A DNA stretch of 64,000 nucleotides from an uncultured cyanobacterium. Its GTDB lineage: Bacteria; Cyanobacteriota; Cyanobacteriia; PCC-6307; Cyanobiaceae. The position numbers and the translations under genes were made by a program. Below the pieces are notes generated by a model. That model worked only from the letters and a program-made list of their open reading frames with translations, had not been told where the DNA came from and searched no databases. Position 1 is the first letter of the stretch, and each line of letters begins with the position of its first letter. Positions 36,380 through 57,142 of the stretch are shown here, in pieces. Location of the stretch: contig CAVXWZ010000011.1 in the NCBI GenBank assembly GCA_963765575.1, positions 32,001 to 96,000 on the forward strand, written 5' to 3'.

Positions 36380-36495
36380 CAACTTGGATCGGGATGATGG
36401 ATTGGGCTGTAAAGGGATTATTGGAATCGTCAAGGAAGCTGTAAGTGACAGCTAGATCTACACTGCTGATAGCCGGTGCGTTAATCGGAAAATTA

Positions 36496-38493
<1,998 letters not shown>

Positions 38494-43534: not shown

Positions 43535-44242
43535 ATGCCCAAGCTGTCCAAGCGCTATTCCGACCTGGCCGCCAAGGTCGATGAGCGGTCCTACGCCCCG
43601 CTCGAGGCCATCGAGCTGGTGAAGGCCAACGCCACGGCCAAGTTCGACGAGACGATCGAGGCCCACGTGCGCCTCGGCATCGATCCCAAGTACACCGACC
43701 AGCAACTGCGCACCACCGTGGCCCTGCCCCACGGCACCGGCCAGGCCATCCGCATCGCCGTGATCGCCCGCGGTGAAGCCGTGGCCGCCGCCAAGGCCGC
43801 CGGTGCGGATCTCTCCGGCGACGACGACCTGGTGGAGGCCATCGCCAAGGGGGAGATGGACTTCGACCTGCTGATCGCCACCCCGGACATGATGCCCAAG
43901 GTGGCCAAGCTCGGCCGCGTGCTCGGCCCCCGCGGTCTGATGCCCAACCCCAAGGCCGGCACCGTGACCACCGACCTGGCCGGCGCCATCGGCGACTTCA
44001 AGGCCGGCAAGCTGGAGTTCCGCGCCGACCGCAGCGGCATCGTGCACGTGCGCTTCGGCAAGGCCAGCTTCGAGCCCGCCAAGTTGCTCGACAACCTCAA
44101 GGCCCTGCAGGAAACCATCGACCGCCAGAAGCCCAGTGGCGCCAAGGGCCGCTACTGGCGCTCCCTCTACGTCACCTCCACCATGGGTCCCTCGGTGCAG
44201 GTGGACTTCGCCGCCCTGCAGGACATCAAGCAGGAGGGTTGA
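43535..44242 (+). CDS. rplA: 50S ribosomal protein L1
   Basis: [35 protein letters not shown]. Confidence 0.98.
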
Positions 44243-44441
44243 GGCCGAGAGGAGGGCGAGGCGGCGCGGCTGCTTCCCAGGCCCTGCCTGCTTCGATGAC
44301 CGTGACGCACAGTGGCCACGGATGGCCTGGTGCCGCTGACCCCGCCGCGCTAGCGGCAGCTGGCTCCAGGCAGGCGGCAACCTTGCGGCTCTCCTGCAGC
44401 TGTTCTTTCAGGGTTGGGAGGAGGAAGCTCCCGAGGCGGAG

Positions 44442-45862
44442 GTGATCTGGAGCACCGAGGGGTCCGTGCGGCGGCGCGAGTCTGACCTCGGCGGTACGCG
44501 AGGCCCGGCGGCAGCTGGCCAGCTGTGGATGTTGGCCGGGCCGCCGCCATGTGGGTCTTTACCTCGGAGACGACAGTCCCAACCTCGTGGCTGGGTTGGC
44601 CTTCTTTCTCGATGGCCATTGCCAGATCGTGCTGCCCCAGCACGCCCCCCGTGATCAACTGAGCCAGCAGCTCATCACCATGGGCTGTGATCGGATCCTC
44701 AGCGACCAGCCTGACTTCGTGCCATCAGGCTGGCAGCCCAGGGCGACTCTGGCCTGGGCTGGCGGCCGGCTCCAGCTGCTCTGCCCTGAAGCTGAAGAGC
44801 CGCCGGGGCCAGGCTGCGCCGGATCCGGACCTCGCCTCTGCCGCGTTTCAGATCCTCTCCTCGGGAACCACCACGGGGCTTCCTTCGCTGCAGAGCCGCA
44901 CGTTTTTCTCGCTGCTCAGCTACGCCACCGCTGGCGAAGACTGGCTCTACTACACGCCCAGGCGCCTGGTGTGGCGCAACCTGCAGTTTCCCGGGCCCCG
45001 GGCCCAGCTGCTCAACCTGATCCTGGCCGGTGGCTGCCTCTGCTGGTTCTGCGCTGAGCAGGAGGATCAGCTCGGGGAGCTCTATGGCCGTAGTGGTGCC
45101 ACCCGCCTCCATCTCTTCGTGCCGCTGCTGCGGCGGCTGGTGGCCCAACAGGCCCTGCTGCGCTTCCCCGCTGAGCTGCAGTTGCTGGTCGGCACCGACC
45201 GGGTGCCAACGGCCCTGCGCGCTGCCGTGCACCGCCAGCGCCCGTCCAGCCTGGCCATCACCTACTCCACCAGCCAGTGCGGGCCGATCACGTACCTGCC
45301 CGCCAACCGGGCGCTGGAGCAGCCGGAATCGGTGGGCTGGCCGCTGCCCAACGTCCAGGTGGGGTTCATGGCGCCGCCAGACCGTGATGGGGCTGCCGAG
45401 ATCGTGGTCGACAAGACCATCACCCTGGCCTATCCCTCGCCGCTGGTCGGCTGGCAAGAGCACACCCAGTCCGTGGCGGCACTTCGCCCTGGCGATCGGT
45501 TGCGCAAACTGGACGATGGCCAGTTTCTCTATGCCGGCAGGGCCAATGATGTTTTCCTGCTGCGGGGGGTGCTGGTGTCGCCCCACGAACTGGAGGCCTT
45601 CCTGGAAGCCCAGCCCGGGGTGCTCGAGGCGGTGGCCTTCGGCGCCGAATCGAGCACCTATGGCGCGGTGCCCATGGCGGTAGTCCAGCTGGCGCCAGGA
45701 TTGGACCCCACGACAACGGCCCAGCAGCTGCAACGGCGCTCCCGGCAGCTCTTTGGTTTCCGAGGTCTCTATGCCGTTCACATCAACCAGGAGGTGCCTC
45801 GGGGAGTGGGAGGCAAGCCGCTGCGGCGGCAGCTCGCCCAGATCTACCGGCTGAACGCCTGA
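44442..45862 (+). CDS. AMP-binding (ANL superfamily) enzyme 1; frameshifts near 44480 and 44810, start uncertain
   Basis: SSGTTTGLP P-loop, YSTSQ, PGD, GRANDVFLLRGVLVSPHELE, PRGVGGK. Confidence 0.75.
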
Positions 45863-45878
45863 CCCTGCAGGCAGGGGC

Positions 45879-46382
45879 TCAGCCGCCGGGTCGTTTCAGA
45901 AAGCGCAGGGCTTCGGCACGGAATCCCCGCCGTTCATAGAAGCGGTGGGCGTCGTGGTTGGCGAATTTGGAGAACAATTGAAAGGCCCTGGCACCCCTGG
46001 CCGCCATGAACTCCTCGGAGTGAGCGAGCAGACGGTTGCCGATGCCCTTGCCGCGGTGCTCCGGGGCGACAGCCAGGGCCAGGATCCAGCCCATGGGTTC
46101 ATCACAGGTGTAAACCGGAAGCAGGATCAGGCCAATGAACCCCGTCAGCTCGCCGTTGTTGTCGGCCACGAAGCACTTGTAGAGGTGGTCGGGCATGGCC
46201 TCCAGCCGCCGCTGGATCGCCCCGGGGGTGGAGGGATAGCCGAGGCTGCCCACCAGGCAGGCGATGGCGGGGAGGTCGCTGTCGCGCAGGTCACGGATCA
46301 GGCCGGCACAGGCCGCATGGCTTTCACCGCCGCCTCCGCTTTCTGGACGGTTGTCCCAGGGCAGCTGGGCAGGAGCTGTCAC
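45879..46382 (-). CDS. GNAT-family acyltransferase
   Basis: LAVAPEHRGKGIGNRLL, AHRFYERRGF; start overlaps the stop of the upstream AMP-binding gene. Confidence 0.9.
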   Translation of the reverse strand: MTAPAQLPWDNRPESGGGGESHAACAGLIRDLRDSDLPAIACLVGSLGYPSTPGAIQRRLEAMPDHLYKCFVADNNGELTGFIGLILLPVYTCDEPMGWILALAVAPEHRGKGIGNRLLAHSEEFMAARGARAFQLFSKFANHDAHRFYERRGFRAEALRFLKRPGG

Positions 46383-47970
46383 GACCTCAGGGCAAACTGC
46401 TCGGCCAACACACGCCGCAGGGGTTTGCCCGTGGGTCCGCGGGGGACATCCTCCACGATGACGACCTGCTTGGCCGAGCGAAAACCGAGCAACTCACGAC
46501 AGTGGTCCCGAAGCTGGGCGGCGATCTCCCTTGAGACCTCCGCTTCCGCTTCACCCACGGCCGCCCGGGCCGCTACGGCTGCACGGGCAGAGCCGCTCAG
46601 CATCACAGCGGCCATCGGGATGGCTCCGTAGGGGCTGGCCGGGGCGCCGAAGGCCACGCAGTCGGCCACGTCCGGTCGCTCTCGCAGCACGTCCTCGATC
46701 TCGAATGGAGACACCAGCACGCCACAGAACAGGAACACGTCATTGGAGCGACCCCCAAATCGGATCTGTCCGGTAGAGGATCGGGCCAGCAGATCGCCGG
46801 GGTTGAAGCTGCTGGTGTCCTCAAGCAGCTCGATCCTCCCAACTGCCATCGTTCCGGGGCAACCGCAGCCAGCGGCTCTTCCGAATCACCATTTCGTGAT
46901 AATCAAGCCCCTGCTTGTGCAGCAGCGCTGGACCATGGGGTTGGAAGCTCACACTCTCAAGGGGAAAACCCACCGATTCCACCTCGTCCAGCAGCTGCTC
47001 CGGAGGTAACCAGGTGAGCGGCCCCGTCTGGCTGGTGGCATAGGTGATGCCGAGCCGCAGCTTGCCGAGAGCTCGCCACCGCTCGACGCAGGTCCATGGG
47101 GATGTGGTCCGAGCCGGTAATGCAGAGAAATCCTTCCGGAAAACGACCGAGCTGTCCCTGCTGGAGCAGGCGCCGCAGGGTCAGGGGCGGGCAGGAGAAG
47201 CCGCTGGTGTTCGGGGGCAGCGAGCTGGGATCGAGCCCATGCCCGTCGCGCACCACGATGGGCTGGCCCCGCAGCAGGTAGCGCAGCTTGAACACCCGGG
47301 AGCTGTAGTCCTGCAGGCCCGGGCCCAGCAAGGGCTGCTCCAGGAGGTCGAAGGGCGACCAGTTCAGCCCCTGCTGCAGGGAGGCCATCCTCAGAAAGCT
47401 GATCCGGTGGATGCCCGGTCGACCGGAGGTGGTGCCTGACGTGATCGACAGAAAGGCGGCCGCATCGGCTCCCGCCTCGGCACCATCGTGATCCTTGTCG
47501 AAACCCGCCCCACGCCGATCCGATGGCCCTGGATCACGGATCTCAAGCAGCTGCAGACCCTCGGCGGTGATCCCCAAAGGGCGCACCTCCGCTTCGTCCA
47601 GGGGGCACTCTCCCTCGACGAGCAGGTGGGTGAGCTCCAGCCGCCGGATCAGTTCACGCCGTTCCCGCGCTGGGGCATAGCGGGCCAGCACGGCTTGGCT
47701 CATGCCAGCCCATACCAGCGCCAGCATGGCGATCAGATGCCGGGGGGAATCGCTGGCGTGAACCCCGACCCGGATCGGCCGGGACCTGGAGCAGCCTGAC
47801 AATGGATCCTGGAGCGCCCTGCCTTCCTGACGTAGCCGCTGCAGCAACTCCAGTCCAGTGATTCCAGGCAGATCGCCCCAGTCGATGACAACAATGTCTG
47901 AGGCGGCGACGAGCCGTTGCTCGAGCTCACCACGAAGCGTGTGGATTGCAAGGTCGCACCCGCAGCTCAT
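46379..47970 (-). CDS. AMP-binding (ANL superfamily) enzyme 2; frameshifts near 47065 and 46860
   Basis: TSGTTSGRP, GITYATSQTGP, NPGDL, GRSNDVFLFCGVLVSPFEIE, PRGPTGK across three frames. Confidence 0.8.
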
Positions 47971-48995
47971 ACCGCCGGCTGTGGGCTCAGTTCGAGGCGG
48001 TCACAACAGATCTGCATAATCTGATGTCCCAGGGCGGTGAGACGACCATGCCGCTGAATGGCACCCAGGGACGACTGCGTGAGTTCCTGCACAGAGGAGC
48101 GCAGTGTCTGCAGCTCCACGACCAGCTGGTCTCGGTCGGAGCGCCAGGGCATCGGGTGGCGGATAGCGGCGTCGAGAAAGGCCACCAGCCGCGCCGCCAC
48201 ATAAAAGGAATGGAGGATGCCGTTCATCGGCCTTGGATCGCGGCGAATCAGCACGCTGTAGCGCTCCTGGTCGGTGTTGGTGCACATCAGCTCGTTCTGG
48301 GAGAGCACGAACAGTTCGGCATGGGCGTATTCGTGGATCAGGGTCACAACCCAGGCGCAAAATGTACGCTCCATTGCCGCATTGATGATGCTGCCTCCCC
48401 TGAAGAAGAAGGTGGTGGCACTGCCGAACCATTGTCCCGCCTCCCTGGCGGCCGGTCCTGGCTCGGCCAAGATCACCACGGCTTGCAGGGCTTCCATGCC
48501 CCGTGCCAGAGGGGCATCGATTTTGCCAATGAAGTCGCGAGCTTCGCTGATGATGGCTGCCTGGGTGGTGCAACGGGCCGGAGCTGGGCTCTCGAGATCG
48601 AGCAGGAAATCGCCTCCTTCCGAGAAGAGTCCCACCAGCAGATCCCAGTGCTGGAGCGGCCGCGACTCCGCTCCATAGGCCAGGACCGTCAGTGGGGGCA
48701 GGAGATGTCTGATCTCCAGCCGCAGTGCTTCGATGAGGTCCGCAGCTGGGATGGCGTCAGGGTTTTGCAGCAGGATGCGGCCGATCTTCCAGTAGAAGAG
48801 ATACACCCATGGGCTCAGGGTGTTCTGGGCTTGCTGTTCAAAACGATCCTGCAGGGCTGCTGCCAACTGTGCTTCTGCCAGTGCAGGGGAATGGCCCTCA
48901 AAGGCCTGTATTGACCAGAGCAGATCAGATCGTCCGAGTGCCAACAGCTCAACGATCGACGCTACCTCAGGTGAGGTGTCGGATTTGAGAGTCAA
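47967..48995 (-). CDS. aKG-HExxH-type peptide-modifying enzyme
   Basis: FGSATTFFFRGG, LIHEYAHAEL, IRRDPRPMNGILHSFYV. Confidence 0.8.
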   Translation of the reverse strand: MTLKSDTSPEVASIVELLALGRSDLLWSIQAFEGHSPALAEAQLAAALQDRFEQQAQNTLSPWVYLFYWKIGRILLQNPDAIPAADLIEALRLEIRHLLPPLTVLAYGAESRPLQHWDLLVGLFSEGGDFLLDLESPAPARCTTQAAIISEARDFIGKIDAPLARGMEALQAVVILAEPGPAAREAGQWFGSATTFFFRGGSIINAAMERTFCAWVVTLIHEYAHAELFVLSQNELMCTNTDQERYSVLIRRDPRPMNGILHSFYVAARLVAFLDAAIRHPMPWRSDRDQLVVELQTLRSSVQELTQSSLGAIQRHGRLTALGHQIMQICCDRLELSPQPAV

Positions 48996-49177
48996 GCAGC
49001 ATTTCCACCATTGCCGGATTCGCCTTCACCCACTTTGGCCGAAAGGTGCGACTGGCAGGTGGGAACCGAGGCCGAGTTGCTGTGGTCGGGATCAATGAAT
49101 GGATCAGAGGGCTCTGCGCCTGAATTGGCTAGTGCCAAAGCTGCGAGTCGAAAACCGAAGAGATGACTGAGTTGCAT
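48992..49177 (-). CDS. Putative precursor peptide P0 (61 aa)
   Basis: MQLSHLFGFRLAAL...HLSAKVGEGESGNGGNAA; shares LFGF and KVG with the array peptides; stop overlaps the HExxH start. Confidence 0.6.
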   Translation of the reverse strand: MQLSHLFGFRLAALALANSGAEPSDPFIDPDHSNSASVPTCQSHLSAKVGEGESGNGGNAA

Positions 49178-49399
49178 GGTTGGCACAACAATAGTGGTGA
49201 AAAGGAGAACAAGCCTGGCAGCATCACCGGTCCGCCTCTCCTTCACTCACTTTGGCCGATAGCTGGGATGGGGATGTGTCGACCGCGACAGCTAGGTGCG
49301 TCACGGTGGCCTCCCCGAGGGTGGCTGGGCTGAGGCTGGGCCCACGGTTGACATCACGTATCAGATTGCGAGAAGGTCCCATGCTGACGAGTAGCCAGT

Positions 49400-49678
49400 T
49401 TGAGCCACGACCCAGCCCCAGACCGCGAGCTCGCCATGATCGGCAGCGCCCTGCGCTCCCTCTCCCTGCCGCCGCAGGATCTTGAGGGGCTTGAGGCTGA
49501 GCTGCGTCGTGACCACGCCAGTCTGCCGATCGAGCACCTGGGGCTGGACAGCCTCGGCCGCATGGAGTTCTGCATCCACCTGGAGCTCGACCACGGGGTG
49601 GTGATCACTCCGGAAACCCTGATCACGCTGAAGACGGTGGCGGCGTTGATCGAGTCGATCCAGGCCCAGTTGGTCTGA
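49400..49678 (+). CDS. Acyl/peptidyl carrier protein
   Basis: 92 aa, acidic, LGLDSLGRMEF phosphopantetheine-site motif. Confidence 0.8.
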   Translation: MSHDPAPDRELAMIGSALRSLSLPPQDLEGLEAELRRDHASLPIEHLGLDSLGRMEFCIHLELDHGVVITPETLITLKTVAALIESIQAQLV

Positions 49679-49682
49679 ATAG

Positions 49683-50718
49683 CTAGCCCGCCAGCTCTTC
49701 GGCCCCCACATCCCAGGCCAGGGGATCCAGGCCCTCTGAAGCCTCGTCTTGGCGAGCCTCGGTTCGCAGCAGGCTGGGCATGGCCTGCTCCAGATTCACC
49801 CCCTGCAGGAGCAGGTCGTGGAACAGGGTGTGGTGGGTGCAGCCCCTGTAGACGCGTCCACTGATCCTGCTCTGGCGCCGGTGCTGCTGCTGGTAGTAGC
49901 TGGCGATCGAGCCAGCGCAGGAGCGATCGGCGGCGTTGTGTTCGGGGTAGGCGAGCACCAGGCGGGTGCGCGGCCATCGCGGCCACCAGCTGCCGATGCC
50001 GCCGTGGGCCCTGGCCACGGCGCCGCCGGGCCGGAAGGTTTGGGGTTCACCACCTGCACCGATGGCCACACCCTGGGCCAGCCCCAGCTGCTGAGCCACC
50101 ACCAAAGCGGCCAGGCCGCCGGCGCTGGTGCCCAGGGTCTGCACCTGGGAGCGGCGCAGGCCACTGCGGCTGAGCCTGCCGAGGTGCTGACGCAGATGAC
50201 GGGTGATGTCTCGCAACACCTCGCCCTGGTGATGGAAATAGCCCTCGAGAGTATGGCGCCTGCACCAGCAGAAGATCGTGCCCGATTGTGCCGAGCGCCG
50301 AGAGGATGTAGGGCGTCGGCGCCATCAGCAGCCCCACATTGCCGGTGAAGCCGATCAGCACAGGCCGGGGCGGGCCATCGGAATCCGGAAGCGGAGCGGC
50401 TTGATAATGAATGATCTCGTGATACTTTCCCGGGTGTACCCGCCGGCTATAGCGGGCTGTGGCCGTCCTGTAGGAGGGCGAAAATCGTTTGGCTTTCTGT
50501 CGCCATCGCTTGAAATCGGAACTGGCGCCTGAATCGCGACGGGCCAGCCGCAACAGCGCTGCCAGCTCGCTGCCAGTGGCGAAGCGATCGATCAGCATCT
50601 GGTGCTGGTTGATGCGATTGGTGTTCAGCGCTTTGAGTCGCTCATACCACTGCGCCGGGGATTCGGCGCGCAGCTCTCGCTCCAGCTCCTCCCAGGGAAG
50701 TTGGGGGGGGCTGGTCAT
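49683..50718 (-). CDS. Alpha/beta-hydrolase-like protein; frameshift near 50260
   Basis: VLIGFTGN in the first frame and nucleophile elbow GTSAGG in the second; ATG overlaps the upstream stop. Confidence 0.6.
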
Positions 50719-53164
50719 GTCTGCAGGGCGTACTGCTCGCTGAGCAGCCGGCGCAGGGGCTTCCCGGTTGGGCCTGCGGGAATGGCATCGAGCGCCATGA
50801 TCCGGCGGGGACGGCGCTGGCCGAGGCCAGCGCGGGCCAGCTGGTCGAGTTCGGCAAGAACAGCGGGAGCTTGATGGCCGGTCCGCAGGCGCACGGCGGC
50901 CATCGGCACGCCCCCATAGCGCTTGGATTGGGCGCCGAAGGCCACGCATTGCTCCACGGCCTCGTGCTGGCTGAGCACCTCCTCGATCTCGTAGGGAGAG
51001 ATCAGCACGCTGGCGAACAGGAAGATGTCATTGGAGCGCCCCCCGAAGATCACCTGGCCCGATGCCGAGAAGGCCAGCAGGTCGCCCGGGTTGAAGGGGC
51101 TGTAGCCGGGCGCGCACACGATCACCTCACGGAAGCTGAGTCCGTCCCGTTCGTAGCGCACCGGACCGGTGGGCTCGAGCGTGACGCCCCGCAGGGGCCA
51201 GCCCACCGAATCCTTCTCCGCCAGCAGCGCTTCCGGGGGCAACCAGGTGAGCGGCCCGCTCTGGCTGGTGGCGTAGGTGATGCCCAGGCGCACGGTGCCG
51301 ATCGCCGCCACGGCCTGCCGCAGGTCCATCGGCACCCGGTCGCTGCCGCTGATCAGCAGAAACCCTGGCGGGCAGTGGCGCAGGTCGTCCCAGGCCAGAT
51401 GCAGCCGCAGCCCGTTGGGCGGCATCGGCATGCCATCGCAGTGCTCCGGGATGCTGCCGGCGGCGAACGGGGTGTCGCTGGAGCGAATCACCAGACCGCT
51501 TCCCTTGAGCAACACCACAAACTTGAACAGGCGGGCACTCCAGTTCTGGAGCCCCTCGCCCAGCAACGGCGAACGCAGCAGGTGGAAGGGGGAGTGAGCG
51601 TCTCCTGGATGCAGCATGGAGATGGCCTTCGCCTCCACCAGCCCCGGACGGCCTGAGCTGGTGCCCGAGGTGGTGCCGATCAAGAGCACGGGATTGCTGC
51701 CAGGCGCCTCGCCACAGACTTCAGGCGTGCTCTGGCGCTGCCAGCAGCCCAGGCCCGAGGGCAGGGAGCCGAGGCGGATCCAGTCCCCGGCGGTCTGGGG
51801 AGCCGGTGGCCGATGCGGTGGGTGAGGGCGAGGCGGTGTTCGAGCGCCTCCTGCTCGCGGGTGGTGGCGGTGATGGGCAGGATGGTCTGGGGCAGGGCCG
51901 AGAGCATCAGCGCCATCCCCGTGATCAGATTCACGGGGCCGTCTTCGATCTGAATGCCCACCCGGGCGGTGACTCCCCAGGTCTTGAGGGGGATGAGGGT
52001 GTGCAGTTCGCGCCGCTCGTTGGCGACCCGTTCGGCGAGGTTGTTGTAGCTGATGCTGTGTCCCAGCCAGTCGATGGCGGTGGCATCGGGCTCGGCACGG
52101 GTCAGCTCCCGCCAGCGCTCGTTGAGCTGCTCCTGCACGGGTTGCAGTGTCCCAGCCTCAACGGCGCTGGGCAGGGATACGGTGCCCCGGCCGCACCGCT
52201 CCAGCCGTTGGGCGGCAGCGTCCACCACCACCTCGCCGATGGGGGTGAGCCTGGCGTGCTCGCGCACCACTGCCAAAGAGGAGAGGCCCTGGGCCAGCTG
52301 TTGCTCCCGCAGTTGCTGAAAGGCGGCCAGGTCCTCCGGGCCAGTGAGGAGATCCATCGGCGGCTGGCTGAGGATCGTGTCGATCACGCCGATCACCCGC
52401 GAGACCACATGCAGGGAATGGAGGATGCCGTGCATCGGGCGGGGATCGGCGCGGATCAGCACCTGGTGGCGCTCCTCGTCGCGGTTGAGGCAGAGCACCT
52501 GCTCCTGCCCCAGGGCAAACAGCTCGCCGTGGGCATACTCATGCACCAGCACCTCCACGGTGGCAGCGAGGCTGCGCGGCAGCGAGGCGTTGAGCACACT
52601 GGCGCCACGAAAGAAGAAGGCTGTGACTCCGCCGAACGACTCTCCTCGCCGTTGGGAGCGGGGCCCGGGGATCGCCAGCACAAGCAGCCGCTGAAGCCGC
52701 AGCATCAAGCCATGCAGGTCAGGGTCGACCAGGGCAATCAGACGGCGTGCGGTCTGGATTTCCTGCTTCAGGGCGTCCAGGTGCAGCGCTGAGGGGGCAG
52801 AGAGATCCTCGACGAAGTCGCCACCTTCCTGCAGCACTGCCAGCAGGGTGGTCCACATCTGCGGGGACGCCTGATCGGAATCCCCGAACGCCACAACAGT
52901 GGGCCCTTGTGCAGGTGAGCCCCTCTCAGCAACGTGACTGTCGTGAGCCAGCCCATGCTCGGCCAGGGCCAATGCGGTGGTGAAGGCCCGCTGCCGTGCC
53001 TGGGAGCCAACCGGCAGATCGGACAGCACCACTTTGCCGAGCTCGTAGTAACCGAGATAGAGCCAGGGAGAGAGGGAGGTTGGCTGGTCCTCGATCCTTT
53101 GTTGAACTGTCTGCGGCAGTAAACCCCAGCCCAGCGATGGATCATGGGCGCTCAGCAAGGACAC
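50715..53164 (-). CDS. aKG-HExxH enzyme apparently fused to AMP-binding domain 3; frameshift near 51790
   Basis: LVHEYAHGEL and IRADPRPMHGILH, then in frame EPDATAIDWLGHSISYNNLA (ANL N-terminus); next frame TSGTSSGRP, YATSQ, PGDL, GRSND, PAGPTGK. Confidence 0.75.
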
Positions 53165-53345
53165 AGAGTCGGCTGAACTGCCGGTGGGCTGTATTCACCG
53201 CTCTGTGCACGCTGGAAGCGAGGTGGTTTTCGCCTGCGATCACGGGGAGAAGCTGCTTGGGGCTAGCCGAGTGGTTGAGTTGTGGCAGACAGTTTTACTT
53301 CAGCGTGGAAAAGGTTTGTTCAAGCGGGATCGAAGCTTGGGTTGG

Positions 53346-53498
53346 TTAATTTGGAATCATTTCAACGTTGATTCCCCGATGAGGGATGTCGATCTCATAT
53401 TCTCTACCCTCTCCGCCAATTTTTGGCTGAGTGCTGGAGGGGATGGCGTCGTGAGGCGCGAAGCCAAAAAGCTCGGTGATGAGAGCGGTATTGGTCAT
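53346..53498 (-). CDS. Putative RiPP precursor P1 (50 aa)
   Basis: MTNTALITELFGFAPHDAIPSSTQPKIGGEGREYEIDIPHRGINVEMIPN. Confidence 0.8.
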   Translation of the reverse strand: MTNTALITELFGFAPHDAIPSSTQPKIGGEGREYEIDIPHRGINVEMIPN

Positions 53499-53661
53499 GG
53501 AACTGTGGAGATGTGAATTCGAAGAGAATCGATTGAAGGCGTCATGATCGAGATATTGACGCTTCTACTTAATCAAACGAGAAACTGTTGCTAGCTGGTC
53601 TTTGCGGGTGGATGAATCCAGCTGGGAGGCCGAAGCGTGGTGGCTTCGTGACCTTTAAGGC

Positions 53662-53823
53662 TCACCAGATTTCAATCGGGGGCCACGGCTTTTCTACGCC
53701 GACGTGCTCAGTGGGAAACAATGGACGTCCAACTTTCGGCTGAGTGCTGGAGGAAATGGTGTGCTGACGGGCGAAACCAAAGAGGCAACCCGCGAGAGAA
53801 ACGTTGTCAGAGAGGATGGCCAT
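53662..53823 (-). CDS. Putative RiPP precursor P2 (53 aa)
   Basis: MAILSDNVSLAGCLFGFARQHTISSSTQPKVGRPLFPTEHVGVEKPWPPIEIW. Confidence 0.8.
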   Translation of the reverse strand: MAILSDNVSLAGCLFGFARQHTISSSTQPKVGRPLFPTEHVGVEKPWPPIEIW

Positions 53824-53848
53824 TGAACAGCAAATCACAATGTGACGC

Positions 53849-53877
53849 ATTTTTGCTGGGTTGCCAGAGTTTGTCAA
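53849..53877 (-). promoter_or_regulatory. Sigma70-like promoter upstream of P2
   Basis: TTGACA-17bp-AAAAAT on the minus strand. Confidence 0.4.
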
Positions 53878-54058
53878 GCCCCAGATCCGGGACGCCATTG
53901 ATCTCCCCGTCGCTCCCCGGGTTGACAGGCGATGAAGGCGAGCTGAGGGTAGGGCTAAGGCTTGATTTTGCCCGATGGGGTTCGGTCTGATCCACCTCTG
54001 CCCTCGGCCAGGGGCTCGCCGAACGACTGAATGCTGCCAGCCACGCCAGAGCTGGTCT

Positions 54059-54196
54059 TTAGGCTGGAATGGCTTCGTATCCGGGCGGCATGGGTTGAAC
54101 TGGGATGCCATTACCCATCTTGGGCTGGATACTGGAAGGAATGCTGTATTGACGGGCGAACCCGAAAAGCTTGTTTGCGAGGGCGGGATTGGTCAT
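54059..54196 (-). CDS. Putative RiPP precursor P3 (45 aa)
   Basis: MTNPALANKLFGFARQYSIPSSIQPKMGNGIPVQPMPPGYEAIPA. Confidence 0.8.
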   Translation of the reverse strand: MTNPALANKLFGFARQYSIPSSIQPKMGNGIPVQPMPPGYEAIPA

Positions 54197-54538
54197 GGGT
54201 TAAATGAAGTGAGAGGGCTGAAGTGAAGGTGGTTTGGCTGAGGTGGCTTCAACACTTAAAGATTTCGCTCTGCCAGGGAGGGGAGGTGCGTATCATAGGC
54301 AATCTAGAGCTGAAGAGATCTCAGCGGCTCAAAAGATCAGAGACGAGTTGCTTGACCCGCCTCCTTTTCAGATTCTAATTTCGCTCTTTCCCCCGAGATT
54401 GTCAAGCAGGAGCTGAGATCGCGAGGGGAGTATTTCAACAGGACTGACGGTTCTCTTCCCATGGCGCAGCGGGGGGGGCCGCCGGACAGCCTTCCAGAAA
54501 CAGTCAGCACAGAAAGGTAAGAATGCTATTCATCAGAC

Positions 54539-54566
54539 AAACCTCTGAGCAATTGCTCAGAGGTTT
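54539..54566. repeat. Perfect 28-bp palindrome
   Basis: aaacctctgagcaa|ttgctcagaggttt. Confidence 0.9.
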
Positions 54567-55247
54567 TTACTGCTACTGATTTTGGGAATCAATTGGCGAC
54601 CTCTAACCCGTGGCACTCACCATGCGCTGCTTTGCTGGGATCGACATGATCACCAACCGGACCCCGGACGGGACTACGATTCTGGCGTTTCAGGGCCCCA
54701 TGGTTGACGATGTGGCAGGGCATCGGAAAGTGGCCAGATATGGGTGACAGCAAGACGGAGTTCAGGATCGCCTTGCGGCCTGGGCACCGCAAGGAACTGC
54801 CTGATACGGCCTAGGACAGGTTGAGCATGCCTTCCCGGTGGTTAATCAGCAGTATTGCTTTGAGAAGACATGGACTCGGGCCATGGAGAAAACCGTTGCA
54901 AGGAGATCCTGCTGACTGCACGACCAAGAAATCTGGCCTAAATGCTCAACATTCAGCCAGCGGACGTTGGCTTTGACAAGCTGTTTGGTTGACGGAGTTG
55001 AGCGGACCATGTTGCAGATAACTTCAGCAACTGCGGCTGTGTGGTAACCAAAGTTCTGTACCTGCGGGCCTTGAGATGCTTCCCGCAGGCGATCGGAGGA
55101 ACAGGGACCGGATGGGTTCCGCCAAAGCAGTAGTTGTTGAAAAATGGAGTATTAGACGCTCGCTTTTTTAGAGCGGACTAGTCCGAATTTAAGACTAATG
55201 TACTCAACTTTGCGCTCTTGAAGCTAACTCTAAGTTTCCGGGTAGTT

Positions 55248-55399
55248 TTAGTTTTCTATGATTTCGCCTGGAGGGAGAGGATTCTTTGGGCCGACATGCA
55301 CTGAGCTCTCCAATTTTGGGCTGTGTGCTGGAGGGAATCGTGTGCTGACGGGCGAAGCCGAAAGAGGCCATCGACAAGAAGCGAGCTTGAATAAGGCAT
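55248..55399 (-). pseudogene. Precursor P4 with two apparent +1 frameshifts
   Basis: MPYSSSLLVDGLF / GFARQHTIPSSTQPKIG / VHVGPKNPLPPGEIIEN* in three successive frames. Confidence 0.65.
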
Positions 55400-55672
55400 A
55401 GTCACGGCAATGTGGATGGAATTGTAGTCACCATGCATTTGCTGCCCGAATTCGACAAGCCCCCGATCCGGGCCGCCAACGGGCTCTCTGGGGGTGCCTG
55501 ACATGGTGAAAGCTTCTGGCCTAATCACCAACTCCAAAGGCGTCGCAGACCATTTGGGGCGGGTCTCAAGCCTGACTCCCCCCGATGCTGCTCTAGTGTG
55601 ATCCAACTCTGACCTTGGACAGGGGGCTCGGCGAATGACTGAACGCTGCCAGGCCCCCCCCAGAGCTGATGT

Positions 55673-55810
55673 TTACTCTGGATTGGCTTCGTAGGCGGGG
55701 GACCTGGGTCTGAAGTCTGGGCCACCACCGATCTTGGGCTGAGTGCTGGAGGGGGTGGTGTATTGAGGTGCGAAGCCAAAAAGCTTGGGGATGAGAGCGG
55801 TATTGGACAT
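55673..55810 (-). CDS. Putative RiPP precursor P5 (45 aa)
   Basis: MSNTALIPKLFGFAPQYTTPSSTQPKIGGGPDFRPRSPAYEANPE. Confidence 0.8.
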   Translation of the reverse strand: MSNTALIPKLFGFAPQYTTPSSTQPKIGGGPDFRPRSPAYEANPE

Positions 55811-56028
55811 GGAATTGCAGGAATGTGATTCGAAGGTGACCGAAAAAAGAGGCGTCGTGATCGAGATATTGATACTTTTGCTTGATCAAGCGAGAGTGTC
55901 TTTGTCGCGCTGACCTTCCCGGGGGGATGAATACAGCGTACAGATAAGGAGGGCCCCCTAGTGCCCTATGGAGTGTTGAAAGCAAGCCTCAGAGTAATTT
56001 TAGCGGTACTCTGCTTCCATCGGGGGCT

Positions 56029-56148
56029 TCACTCGCGGCGTGCACGGCGACCCCCAACTTTCGGCTGAATGCTGGAGGGAATGGTGTGCTGACGCGCGAA
56101 ACCAAAGAGGTTGGTCACGAGAGCAGGATTTCCTGAAAGCTTTGCCAC
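56029..56148 (-). CDS. Putative RiPP precursor P6 (39 aa as written; may extend to 56000 if the G5 run lacks a base)
   Basis: GTG start, MAKLSGNPALVTNLFGFARQHTIPSSIQPKVGGRRARRE; alternative tail SPCTPRVKPPMEAEYR. Confidence 0.72.
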   Translation of the reverse strand: MAKLSGNPALVTNLFGFARQHTIPSSIQPKVGGRRARRE

Positions 56149-56419
56149 TGGAGGAATTACTATGACTCCTCTCACCTTGGCCTGGTTGCCAGGGTTTGTG
56201 CAACCCCAATATCCGGGACGCCATCGACCTCTCTGGAGATCCCTGCCGACCCTGGCAGTACTCACCATTGCTCCGCGGGGCAGAGAGGCGCTGAAGCCGA
56301 GCTGAGGGCAGGGCTCAGGCTTGATATCGACCGATCGGGTGCGGTGCTGATCAGCCTCTGCCTTCGGCCAGGTGCTGGCCACGCGAGTGAACTGCTGTCA
56401 GCCACGCCAAAGCTGGTCT

Positions 56420-56548
56420 TTAGGTTGGATTGGCTTCGTAGGGGGGTTGAACTGGCGTGCCCACACCCATCTTGGGCTGAGTGCTGGAGGGGATGGTGTA
56501 TTGACGGGAGAAGCCAAACAGCTTGTTGACGAAGATGGGATTGGCCAT
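56420..56548 (-). CDS. Putative RiPP precursor P7 (42 aa)
   Basis: MANPIFVNKLFGFSRQYTIPSSTQPKMGVGTPVQPPYEANPT. Confidence 0.8.
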   Translation of the reverse strand: MANPIFVNKLFGFSRQYTIPSSTQPKMGVGTPVQPPYEANPT

Positions 56549-56705
56549 GGGATGCATCGATTGGGTGAGATAGTTGGCAAAGATGTCGGGCTTGGAGCTG
56601 AATCAAGTGAGTCCACCGAATCGCAACTGAAGCGCCAGTTCAGGCAGAAATCCAATGATCCCGGCTCAGAGCGGTGCAGGCTTGATCTTGGCAAATCGCT
56701 TATTT

Positions 56706-56734
56706 ACTTTAATTGTATCTTCCCTCTTTGTCAA
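56706..56734 (-). promoter_or_regulatory. Near-consensus sigma70 promoter heading the precursor array
   Basis: TTGACA-17bp-TAAAGT on the minus strand in an AT-rich patch about 160 bp upstream of P7. Confidence 0.6.
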
Positions 56735-56904
56735 TTTAACGATCAGTCTCCTGGGCCAGGGGCCCAGCCCGCCGCGAGGTGACGCCACCGGGGCCGATGG
56801 GTTCAGCATGCCGCTGTGCGCCGGGTCCTGGGACGGTCCAGGGTCTTTCTTGAGGGTAGGCTGCTATGGTGATGAGCTGGCTTCGGCCAGACGGGCACGC
56901 GCCC

Positions 56905-56975
56905 GACCCCAGACAGCAGGTTGGACAAGGCTCCGGTTCGCCGGTGAATCCTTATTCGTAAGCCCTGCCGAGGTG
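56905..56975 (+). promoter_or_regulatory. L10 leader (rplJ autoregulatory RNA)
   Basis: AGACAGCAGG...CCTGCCGAGG motif upstream of rplJ. Confidence 0.75.
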
Positions 56976-57142
56976 AACGCGACAGGTTTCAGCCTCCAGT
57001 GCACCAGCGGCCTCCTGCCGCCGGCGAGCTGGTCGGGCCCGGAGCATGCAGCGGCCTCGCCACCAGTTCTGAGCCGTTTCCCGGCGCAGACGGTGTCCCA
57101 GGGCCGCGTACCCCGCTTGTTCCCCCGATCCGTTCCTTCCCT

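Follow-up and report, generated by a model that had tools for sequence, protein, structure and literature searches.

A stop-free reading frame joining an HExxH oxidase to an adenylate-forming enzyme is probably an assembly artefact within a conserved picocyanobacterial cassette with a predicted role in the hydroxylation and acylation of small ribosomal peptides

Open reading frames (ORFs) that join two enzyme domains can point to coupled chemistry, or to errors in the assembly that carries them. Here, we analyzed a 64,000-nucleotide stretch of an uncultured cyanobacterium of the family Cyanobiaceae (contig CAVXWZ010000011.1, positions 32,001 to 96,000; hereafter the window, whose own numbering is used throughout), in which an HExxH-type oxidase appears to be fused to an adenylate-forming (ANL) enzyme. 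The source genome comprises 2.7 Mb in 11 contigs, and the closest related locus (L001) is from Cyanobium sp. ATX 6A2. We conclude that the fusion is probably an artefact. The oxidase and the adenylating enzyme are likely encoded by two distinct but coupled genes, which belong to a conserved cassette for peptide modification; hydroxylation and acylation of small ribosomal peptides are its predicted activities. Three features of the window define the question.

52160..53243, minus strand: HExxH-1, an alpha-ketoglutarate (aKG)-HExxH non-haem iron oxidase; start at GTG 53243 probable, HEYAH from 52543, probable end near TGA 52160-52158
50715..52156, minus strand: ANL-1, an adenylate-forming enzyme of ~480 aa (PF13193); 57-72% to the stand-alone 479-aa P0188 and P0020; frameshift near 51800
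52136..52207, minus strand: disputed junction; ~24 codons stop-free in the HExxH frame; a TGA at 52160-52158 is out of frame and shares bases with a TTG, and a GTG at 52138 is in frame

The ORF at 53164-51680 (minus strand, 494 aa) matches the aKG-HExxH profile TIGR04267 at residues 138-316 with 74 bits (cut-off, 40). As the original prediction had described, no stop separates this domain from ~115 residues that resemble the N-terminus of stand-alone ANL proteins (52138-51797; 57% to P0188 residues 7-120). The remainder of ANL-1 lies in another frame past a frameshift near 51800 (71.8% to P0188 residues 122-478), close to the position of 51790 that had been proposed for the break; a contig of a related strain (X2 record 16) has one extra base behind 51806, and the break is thus not shared. 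Bridging this frameshift was correct, whereas the start at 53164 and the resulting length of ~815 aa probably need revision. The N-terminus of the HExxH-1 orthologue aligns to yet another frame, from GTG 53243, behind a second frameshift near 53175, where a related contig leaves a loose end. From this alignment, the true start is probably GTG 53243, and with the break near 53175 the bridged protein would therefore have ~842 codons.

Related genomes encode the two domains separately. HExxH and ANL genes are adjacent in 13 related loci, and a stop lies between them in all 13: eight junctions have a 4-base overlap, one a 1-base overlap and two a longer overlap, one has a 17-base gap, and in one a TGA is followed directly by ATG. 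These loci amount to ~9 distinct lineages, since they include four near-duplicate pairs; L001 and L016, whose proteins are identical, were counted once. In two further loci HExxH and ANL belong to the same cassette with a carrier and a precursor between them. The second module of the window likewise has the same two domains as adjacent genes, as had been noticed before (HExxH-2 and ANL-2, with a 4-base ATGA overlap at 47967-47970). The single HExxH-ANL polypeptide that was originally proposed is thus not supported, with a stop and restart between the domains in every one of the 13 relatives and the fused form seen only in an indel-rich assembly.

Wider searches covered both proteins and genomes. 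A phmmer search with HExxH plus the ANL start as query against 1.84 billion representatives returned 757 matches, and among the best 150 of these, which we examined, there was no HExxH-ANL protein (0 of 149 non-self). Within these 150, the 17 non-self matches below 1e-30 are 197-381 aa long and none extends past query residue 328, two rows match the ANL part alone, from their own N-terminus, and the sole rows above 500 aa are HExxH with TPR and sulfotransferase and HExxH with GT2. The first of these, P0090 (1007 aa), was considered as a candidate HExxH-ANL fusion and ruled out because its extra domains are TPR plus sulfotransferase; the second, P0066 (599 aa), joins HExxH to a family 2 glycosyltransferase. 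Each is a singleton known from a single contig, and both architectures are thus provisional. Nine other genomes of the 401 in the family have open HExxH frames of 336-406 aa, none of them fused (0/9). A TIGR04267 scan of 401 cyanobacterial genomes gave matches in seven genomes and no visible ANL fusion; a 914-codon frame in G747, a weak match below the cut-off, was set aside with nothing ANL-like seen by eye in the 699 residues read. A word-index search for relatives of 798-2275 aa found none among 8000 candidates, which is weak evidence. The supposition that this architecture is not already common therefore held, in that neither the protein nor the 401-genome searches returned such a fusion.

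The ends of the separate proteins can be placed on the junction. The C-terminal end of the closest HExxH relatives lies 31-34 residues past an LTxxG motif, and a DW motif stands at residue 26-31 in most ANL relatives, with P0188 residue 7 aligning to 52138 (two length-limited searches for relatives were used solely for these end positions). The HExxH ends and the ANL starts converge on one set of four codons at the out-of-frame TGA, so that no room is left for a linker.

Frame breaks are frequent in this part of the assembly. Five of them lie in five enzyme genes of the 6.4-kb cluster (near 53175, 51800, 50260, 47070 and 46850), for which reason the absence of a stop at the junction is weak evidence for a fusion. 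Conserved ORFs show 15 frame changes in 104 matches spanning 39,734 aa, a rough count, since shadow ORFs and multiple entries for a single gene are among the rows. The frameshifted genes include those that we take, from their N-termini, to encode alanyl- and valyl-tRNA synthetase and FabI. The enolase ORF (36493-38478, minus strand) runs to 661 aa against the usual ~430, with an out-of-frame TGA at the position of the orthologue's stop; this read-through is likely an assembly indel of the same pattern as that at the HExxH-ANL junction, for which it served as a control from within the window. A further frameshift at about 34670 (G000 C11:66670) falls in a 563-aa gene that is 94% identical to relatives and is presumably an ABC1-type kinase. 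Weighing the local error rate against the unfused relatives, we are fairly confident that the stop-free join is an assembly indel hiding a stop and not a real, selected protein; this grading, like those that follow for a working fusion and for decay, is our own estimate and not a computed value.

Several observations weigh against an artefact. Read-through at a gene end was counted in just 1 of 95 cases in the assembly, the enolase (five further rows were excluded, three of them as overshoots and two, an antisense shadow ORF and a contig-split gene, without closer inspection). The nearest locus (L001/L016) has the immediate TGA-ATG arrangement, with both genes in one frame, so that one substitution in that lineage would yield a real fusion. 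A codon model across the junction puts the fused frame weakly first, with no other frame better. Support is good for the HExxH frame as far as ~52163 and for the ANL frame starting at ~52144 (GC at third codon positions, 12/13 and 13/14), which leaves only ~20 bases for an indel. Among the contigs compared at the junction, which come from two marine metagenome runs sharing 0.07-0.09 of words, the nearest piece ends at 52153, and no listed contig reaches the TGA or spans the junction; five clipped letters beyond 52153 are compatible with an indel or a wobble change and were given no weight.

These points, together with the junction's lack of an in-frame stop and the joining of HExxH to other tailoring domains elsewhere (GT2 and TPR-sulfotransferase), would fit a working, strain-specific HExxH-ANL protein of ~840 aa that arose by stop loss, with only the breaks near 53175 and 51800 as errors. 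We consider this unlikely. None of the 13 related junctions is fused and no fusion appeared in the wider protein and genome searches, the TGA remnant stands at the expected position without extra linker, the local indel density is ~1 per 1.3 kb, and P0001 and the ANL fragment are singletons from one contig. Quite improbable is a correct assembly of a decaying cluster, in which frameshifts and read-through would be real, unselected mutations in a dead pathway: the cluster does have frame breaks at ~6 times the density of conserved genes (1 per 1.3 kb versus ~1 per 8 kb) and ANL-3, a third adenylating enzyme described below, is broken in L016 too, yet frameshifts also occur in genes that we take to be essential (those for alanyl- and valyl-tRNA synthetase and FabI), the aligned pieces are free of in-frame nonsense codons, and all catalytic motifs are intact.

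With HExxH-1 and ANL-1 read as separate genes, the remaining features of the cassette are as follows.

53346..56548, minus strand: putative precursor genes arrayed upstream of HExxH-1, namely six LFGF..SS(T/I)QPK(I/M/V)G copies plus a seventh
49683..50718, minus strand: alpha/beta-hydrolase fold, predicted acyltransferase; 71% to an intact 353-aa orthologue, overlaps ANL-1 by ATGA and is frameshifted near 50260
49400..49678, plus strand: acyl/peptidyl carrier protein, stand-alone, whose serine motif is DSL (PF00550, E 1.3e-7), convergent on the enzyme genes
48992..49177, minus strand: putative precursor with LFGF leader and SAKVG core, just upstream of HExxH-2
47967..48995, minus strand: HExxH-2, an intact stand-alone paralogue (TIGR04267, 70.7 bits; 36-39% to HExxH-1)
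46379..47970, minus strand: ANL-2, a separate gene (PF00501 and PF13193); 4-base overlap with the HExxH-2 stop, frameshifts near 47070 and 46850
45879..46382, minus strand: GNAT acetyltransferase (PF00583), accessory, present in 2 of 22 related loci scanned
44687..45862, plus strand: ANL-3, a short third adenylating enzyme of 391 aa (PF00501), accessory; 66% to a 564-codon frame in L037

The cassette (44240-57100) sits between genes that we recognise as rplA and rplJ, inside what we take to be a run of ribosomal protein genes. GC content in the cluster is 54-68% versus mostly 67-75% in the flanks, and relatives of the genus use the same insertion site with differing gene orders. The conserved unit consists of a precursor, HExxH, ANL, a ~350-aa alpha/beta-hydrolase, and a carrier protein on the opposite strand, and this cassette is conserved among picocyanobacteria. 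Wherever a related contig is long enough, the carrier protein is found with ANL and the hydrolase; the hydrolase occurs in 8 of the 401 genomes of the family, and in five of these the close HExxH type is present as well. A phosphopantetheinyl transferase (PF01648) is encoded in the genome. The accessory ANL-3 is the 564-codon frame in L037 and the broken gene in L016, and in those loci GNAT co-occurs with it. The original claim that the fusion links peptide oxidation with adenylation thus survives as a functional link (adjacent genes in 13 loci and the same cassette in 2 more), and is not supported as a claim about a single polypeptide: the coupling is supported by gene neighbourhood, as read from sequence, and not by a fused protein. 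ANL is given its role in the cassette because the carrier protein, the hydrolase, and precursors accompany it.

By profile score and motifs, HExxH-1 belongs to the aKG-HExxH family. Its H208/E209/H212, R238, D240, R242 and P243 are invariant in 22 sequences, as are H221, E222, H225, R251, D253, R255, P256 and H262 in an alignment of 50 HExxH sequences, and it matches ChlH (8s5f) by sequence with an E of 4.9e-6. HExxH-2 falls outside the HExxH-1 clade in the tree.

Residues S163-G164-T165, D358, R373 and K465 of ANL are invariant in 24 sequences; we take these to be the P-loop TSGTT and the Asp, Arg and Lys of motifs A7, A8 and A10, respectively. At the A5 position an invariant Gln (Q298) replaces the usual Mg-binding glutamate of YGxTE, which weakens the assignment of ANL to any named subfamily; scores against the NCBIfam subfamilies are all far below the cut-offs. 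The best solved relatives by sequence are Cfl (7a9j, E 3e-24), presumably an amide-forming ligase, and MenE.

The 350-aa protein of the cassette is, in its predicted structure, an alpha/beta-hydrolase fold with a Ser-Asp-His triad. All 10 aligned rows, which include two near-duplicates, keep Asp264, His296 and a Ser198 that lies in an LG(T/S)SxG(G/A) elbow, and the predicted model of the intact 353-aa orthologue (predicted local distance difference test score, 84.5) matches alpha/beta hydrolases with a Z of up to 15.5 and a root mean square deviation of 3.6 over 225 residues. The hydrolase query had no match among plasmids. Clusters from Pseudomonadota resemble the hydrolase and HExxH-2. A partial counterpart of the gene set was seen in G313 (L060:1-3659), where ANL, hydrolase-like, and ATP-grasp-like genes stand in a row and the HExxH query that we used found no HExxH in the genome.

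The short ORFs beside these enzymes are putative precursors of RiPPs (peptides that are made by ribosomes and then altered post-translationally), as judged from a conserved leader and core next to modifying enzymes; none matches an NCBIfam family. L-F-G-F, a Lys, and a Ser located five residues ahead of that Lys (Ser(-5)) are invariant in 20 aligned precursor peptides, and all 31 cores from 20 peptides fit S/T-x4-K-[VIMF]-[GAS], with Ser at -5 in 30 and Thr in the other. A single peptide of L046 carries as many as four copies of the core. In the window itself, HExxH-2 is preceded by one SAKVG precursor and HExxH-1 by six to seven QPK[IMV]G precursors, the seventh of which (near 55320-55370) is without the leading Leu. 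The array copies are spaced about 330-700 bases apart, have variable tails, and occupy the part of the window where GC is lowest. Upstream of the intact copy before HExxH-2, the segment 49224-49330 (minus strand) has an SAKVS core and no LFGF leader and may be a degenerate second precursor.

Similar LxGF...AK[IV]G peptides adjoin distant HExxH genes that are accompanied by ATP-grasp ligases (L038 and L040 by Pfam, L064 by eye), and no carrier gene was found at these three loci. Ser(-5) is fixed in the ANL cassettes versus 4 of 9 cores, counted by eye, beside HExxH loci of the ATP-grasp type. Because such peptides stand beside HExxH genes that lack the trio of ANL, carrier, and hydrolase, the leader and the Lys motif appear to be tied to HExxH and the fixed Ser to the acylation trio. 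Two of the distant loci have further features. At L064:1-3360, from another cyanobacterial family, four LLGF...QAKI(G/S) precursors precede the HExxH gene and an ATP-grasp-like gene; at L039:7458-12728, a distant HExxH with AKIG precursors comes before an ATP-grasp protein and an ANL-carrier fusion of 845 aa, which has an additional domain at its C-terminus.

By analogy with known pathways, we slightly favor a mechanism in which small ribosomal peptides would be hydroxylated and then acylated. The HExxH enzyme would bind the LFGF leader, as suggested by the L-x-G-F...AK[IV]G peptides that adjoin related HExxH genes lacking the trio. Hydroxylation driven by Fe(II)/alpha-ketoglutarate would then take place in the core, where the invariant Lys and the following Val/Ile are the likeliest sites. 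ANL would adenylate a carboxylic acid and load it onto the phosphopantetheine arm of the carrier, and the Ser-Asp-His hydrolase would take over the carrier-bound acyl group and pass it to the peptide. Ser(-5) is the most likely acceptor, with the newly formed hydroxyl and the amine of Lys as second choices. Residues reported to be hydroxylated by aKG-HExxH enzymes are His, Asp, Phe, Gln and Pro (PMC13060819), and characterised relatives act as hydroxylases of peptides (PMC12636437). For nosiheptide, NosI is described as adenylating its substrate and loading the carrier NosJ, and the alpha/beta-hydrolase NosK as releasing the acyl group; transfer by NosK to the precursor is proposed there and was not observed in that study (PMC5585349).

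The matches of the hydrolase to generic alpha/beta-hydrolase folds are tied at Z 13.4-15.5, and NosK is absent from the fold matches listed, which excludes nothing. Two points weigh against the mechanism: the hydrolase is no nearer to NosK than to other alpha/beta hydrolases among the matches listed, and S9 peptidases are among its look-alikes. In an alternative reading, the genes would be separate with the hydrolase acting as a leader peptidase and ANL acylating the Lys amine directly or via GNAT, in the manner of an amide-forming ligase. Clusters of S9 peptidases among the look-alikes, the match of ANL to Cfl, presumably such a ligase, the invariant Lys of the cores, and the lack of any other protease seen in the cassette would be consistent with this. 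We regard it as somewhat unlikely, in that a stand-alone carrier travels with ANL and the hydrolase and direct amidation would need none, GNAT is limited to the 2 of 22 loci, and the fixation of Ser(-5) in cassettes is not matched at the ATP-grasp-type loci. Very improbable is oxidation by HExxH of the carrier-bound acyl group rather than the peptide, as by NosN on NosJ-bound indole: carrier-bound tailoring is described for the nosiheptide pathway (PMC5585349) and a true HExxH-ANL fusion would fit, but the related HExxH genes at L038, L040 and L064, with no carrier gene found nearby, still stand beside peptides of this leader and AK[IV]G type, and the characterised HExxH enzymes in the reports consulted act on peptides.

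Compared with the alphaKG-HExxH peptide beta-hydroxylases (TIGR04267/IPR026337; ChlBH/ChlH, BpmH, PflC/PosC, PesO), the cassette enzyme shares the HExxH, R-x-D-x-R-P, and the third His, scores over the family cut-off, matches ChlH, and stands beside short precursor genes. Unlike them, it is found in a cassette without a radical SAM, MNIO, or nitroreductase gene, with an LFGF leader, an S-x4-K-[VIM]-G core, and ANL, carrier, and alpha/beta-hydrolase partners. Radical SAM-HExxH fusions of the ChlBH type offer a known two-domain precedent for HExxH; the partner in the window ORF is ANL, and that fusion is probably not real. With NosI/NosJ/NosK, the cassette shares its three classes of protein, again next to a RiPP precursor, and the same predicted flow from acid to acyl-AMP, carrier, hydrolase, and peptide, whereas no YcaO, dehydratase, or NosL/NosN gene is present among the cluster ORFs scanned and its cores are without conserved Cys. 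It likely works like NosI/J/K without being a thiopeptide cluster. Selidamides, cyanobacterial RiPPs with fatty-acylated Lys/Orn, reportedly have Nif11/NHLP leaders and a GNAT-type maturase. The cassette resembles them as a cyanobacterial RiPP system with a conserved, potentially acylated Lys and with GNAT in some loci, and differs in that selidamides are not known to have HExxH or a dedicated ANL-carrier-hydrolase trio and that GNAT is accessory in the cassette. A description of the cassette, including the combination of HExxH, acyl carrier protein, and precursor peptide, was not found in a literature search that left most subscription papers and the supplements of HExxH preprints outside its reach, and the cassette is apparently undescribed.

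As a domain architecture, the probable artefact warns against reading fusions from indel-rich assemblies, and a true HExxH-ANL fusion would add little to the reading of the cassette as a RiPP class. That broader reading, which we judge evenly balanced, is of a new picocyanobacterial RiPP class in which a stand-alone aKG-HExxH would hydroxylate a Lys-containing core and a carrier-dependent ANL/hydrolase pair would acylate or bridge Ser(-5) and Lys in each repeat. It would form a branch of a wider LxGF/AK[IV]G peptide family in which the HExxH enzymes change partners (ATP-grasp ligase, ANL-carrier fusion, glycosyltransferase, sulfotransferase). To our knowledge, carrier-dependent acylation by an ANL-carrier-hydrolase trio is known from thiopeptides only. 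The characterised aKG-HExxH enzymes, in the reports consulted, have His, Asp, Phe, Gln, Asn or Pro as substrates and radical SAM or MNIO partners; if the reading is true, a Lys-centred core would be a new substrate for them. Four enzyme or carrier genes and a precursor of 50-80 residues are intact in Cyanobium L001, making the chemistry directly testable in Escherichia coli, and if confirmed, it would add a specialised-metabolite pathway to the picocyanobacteria.

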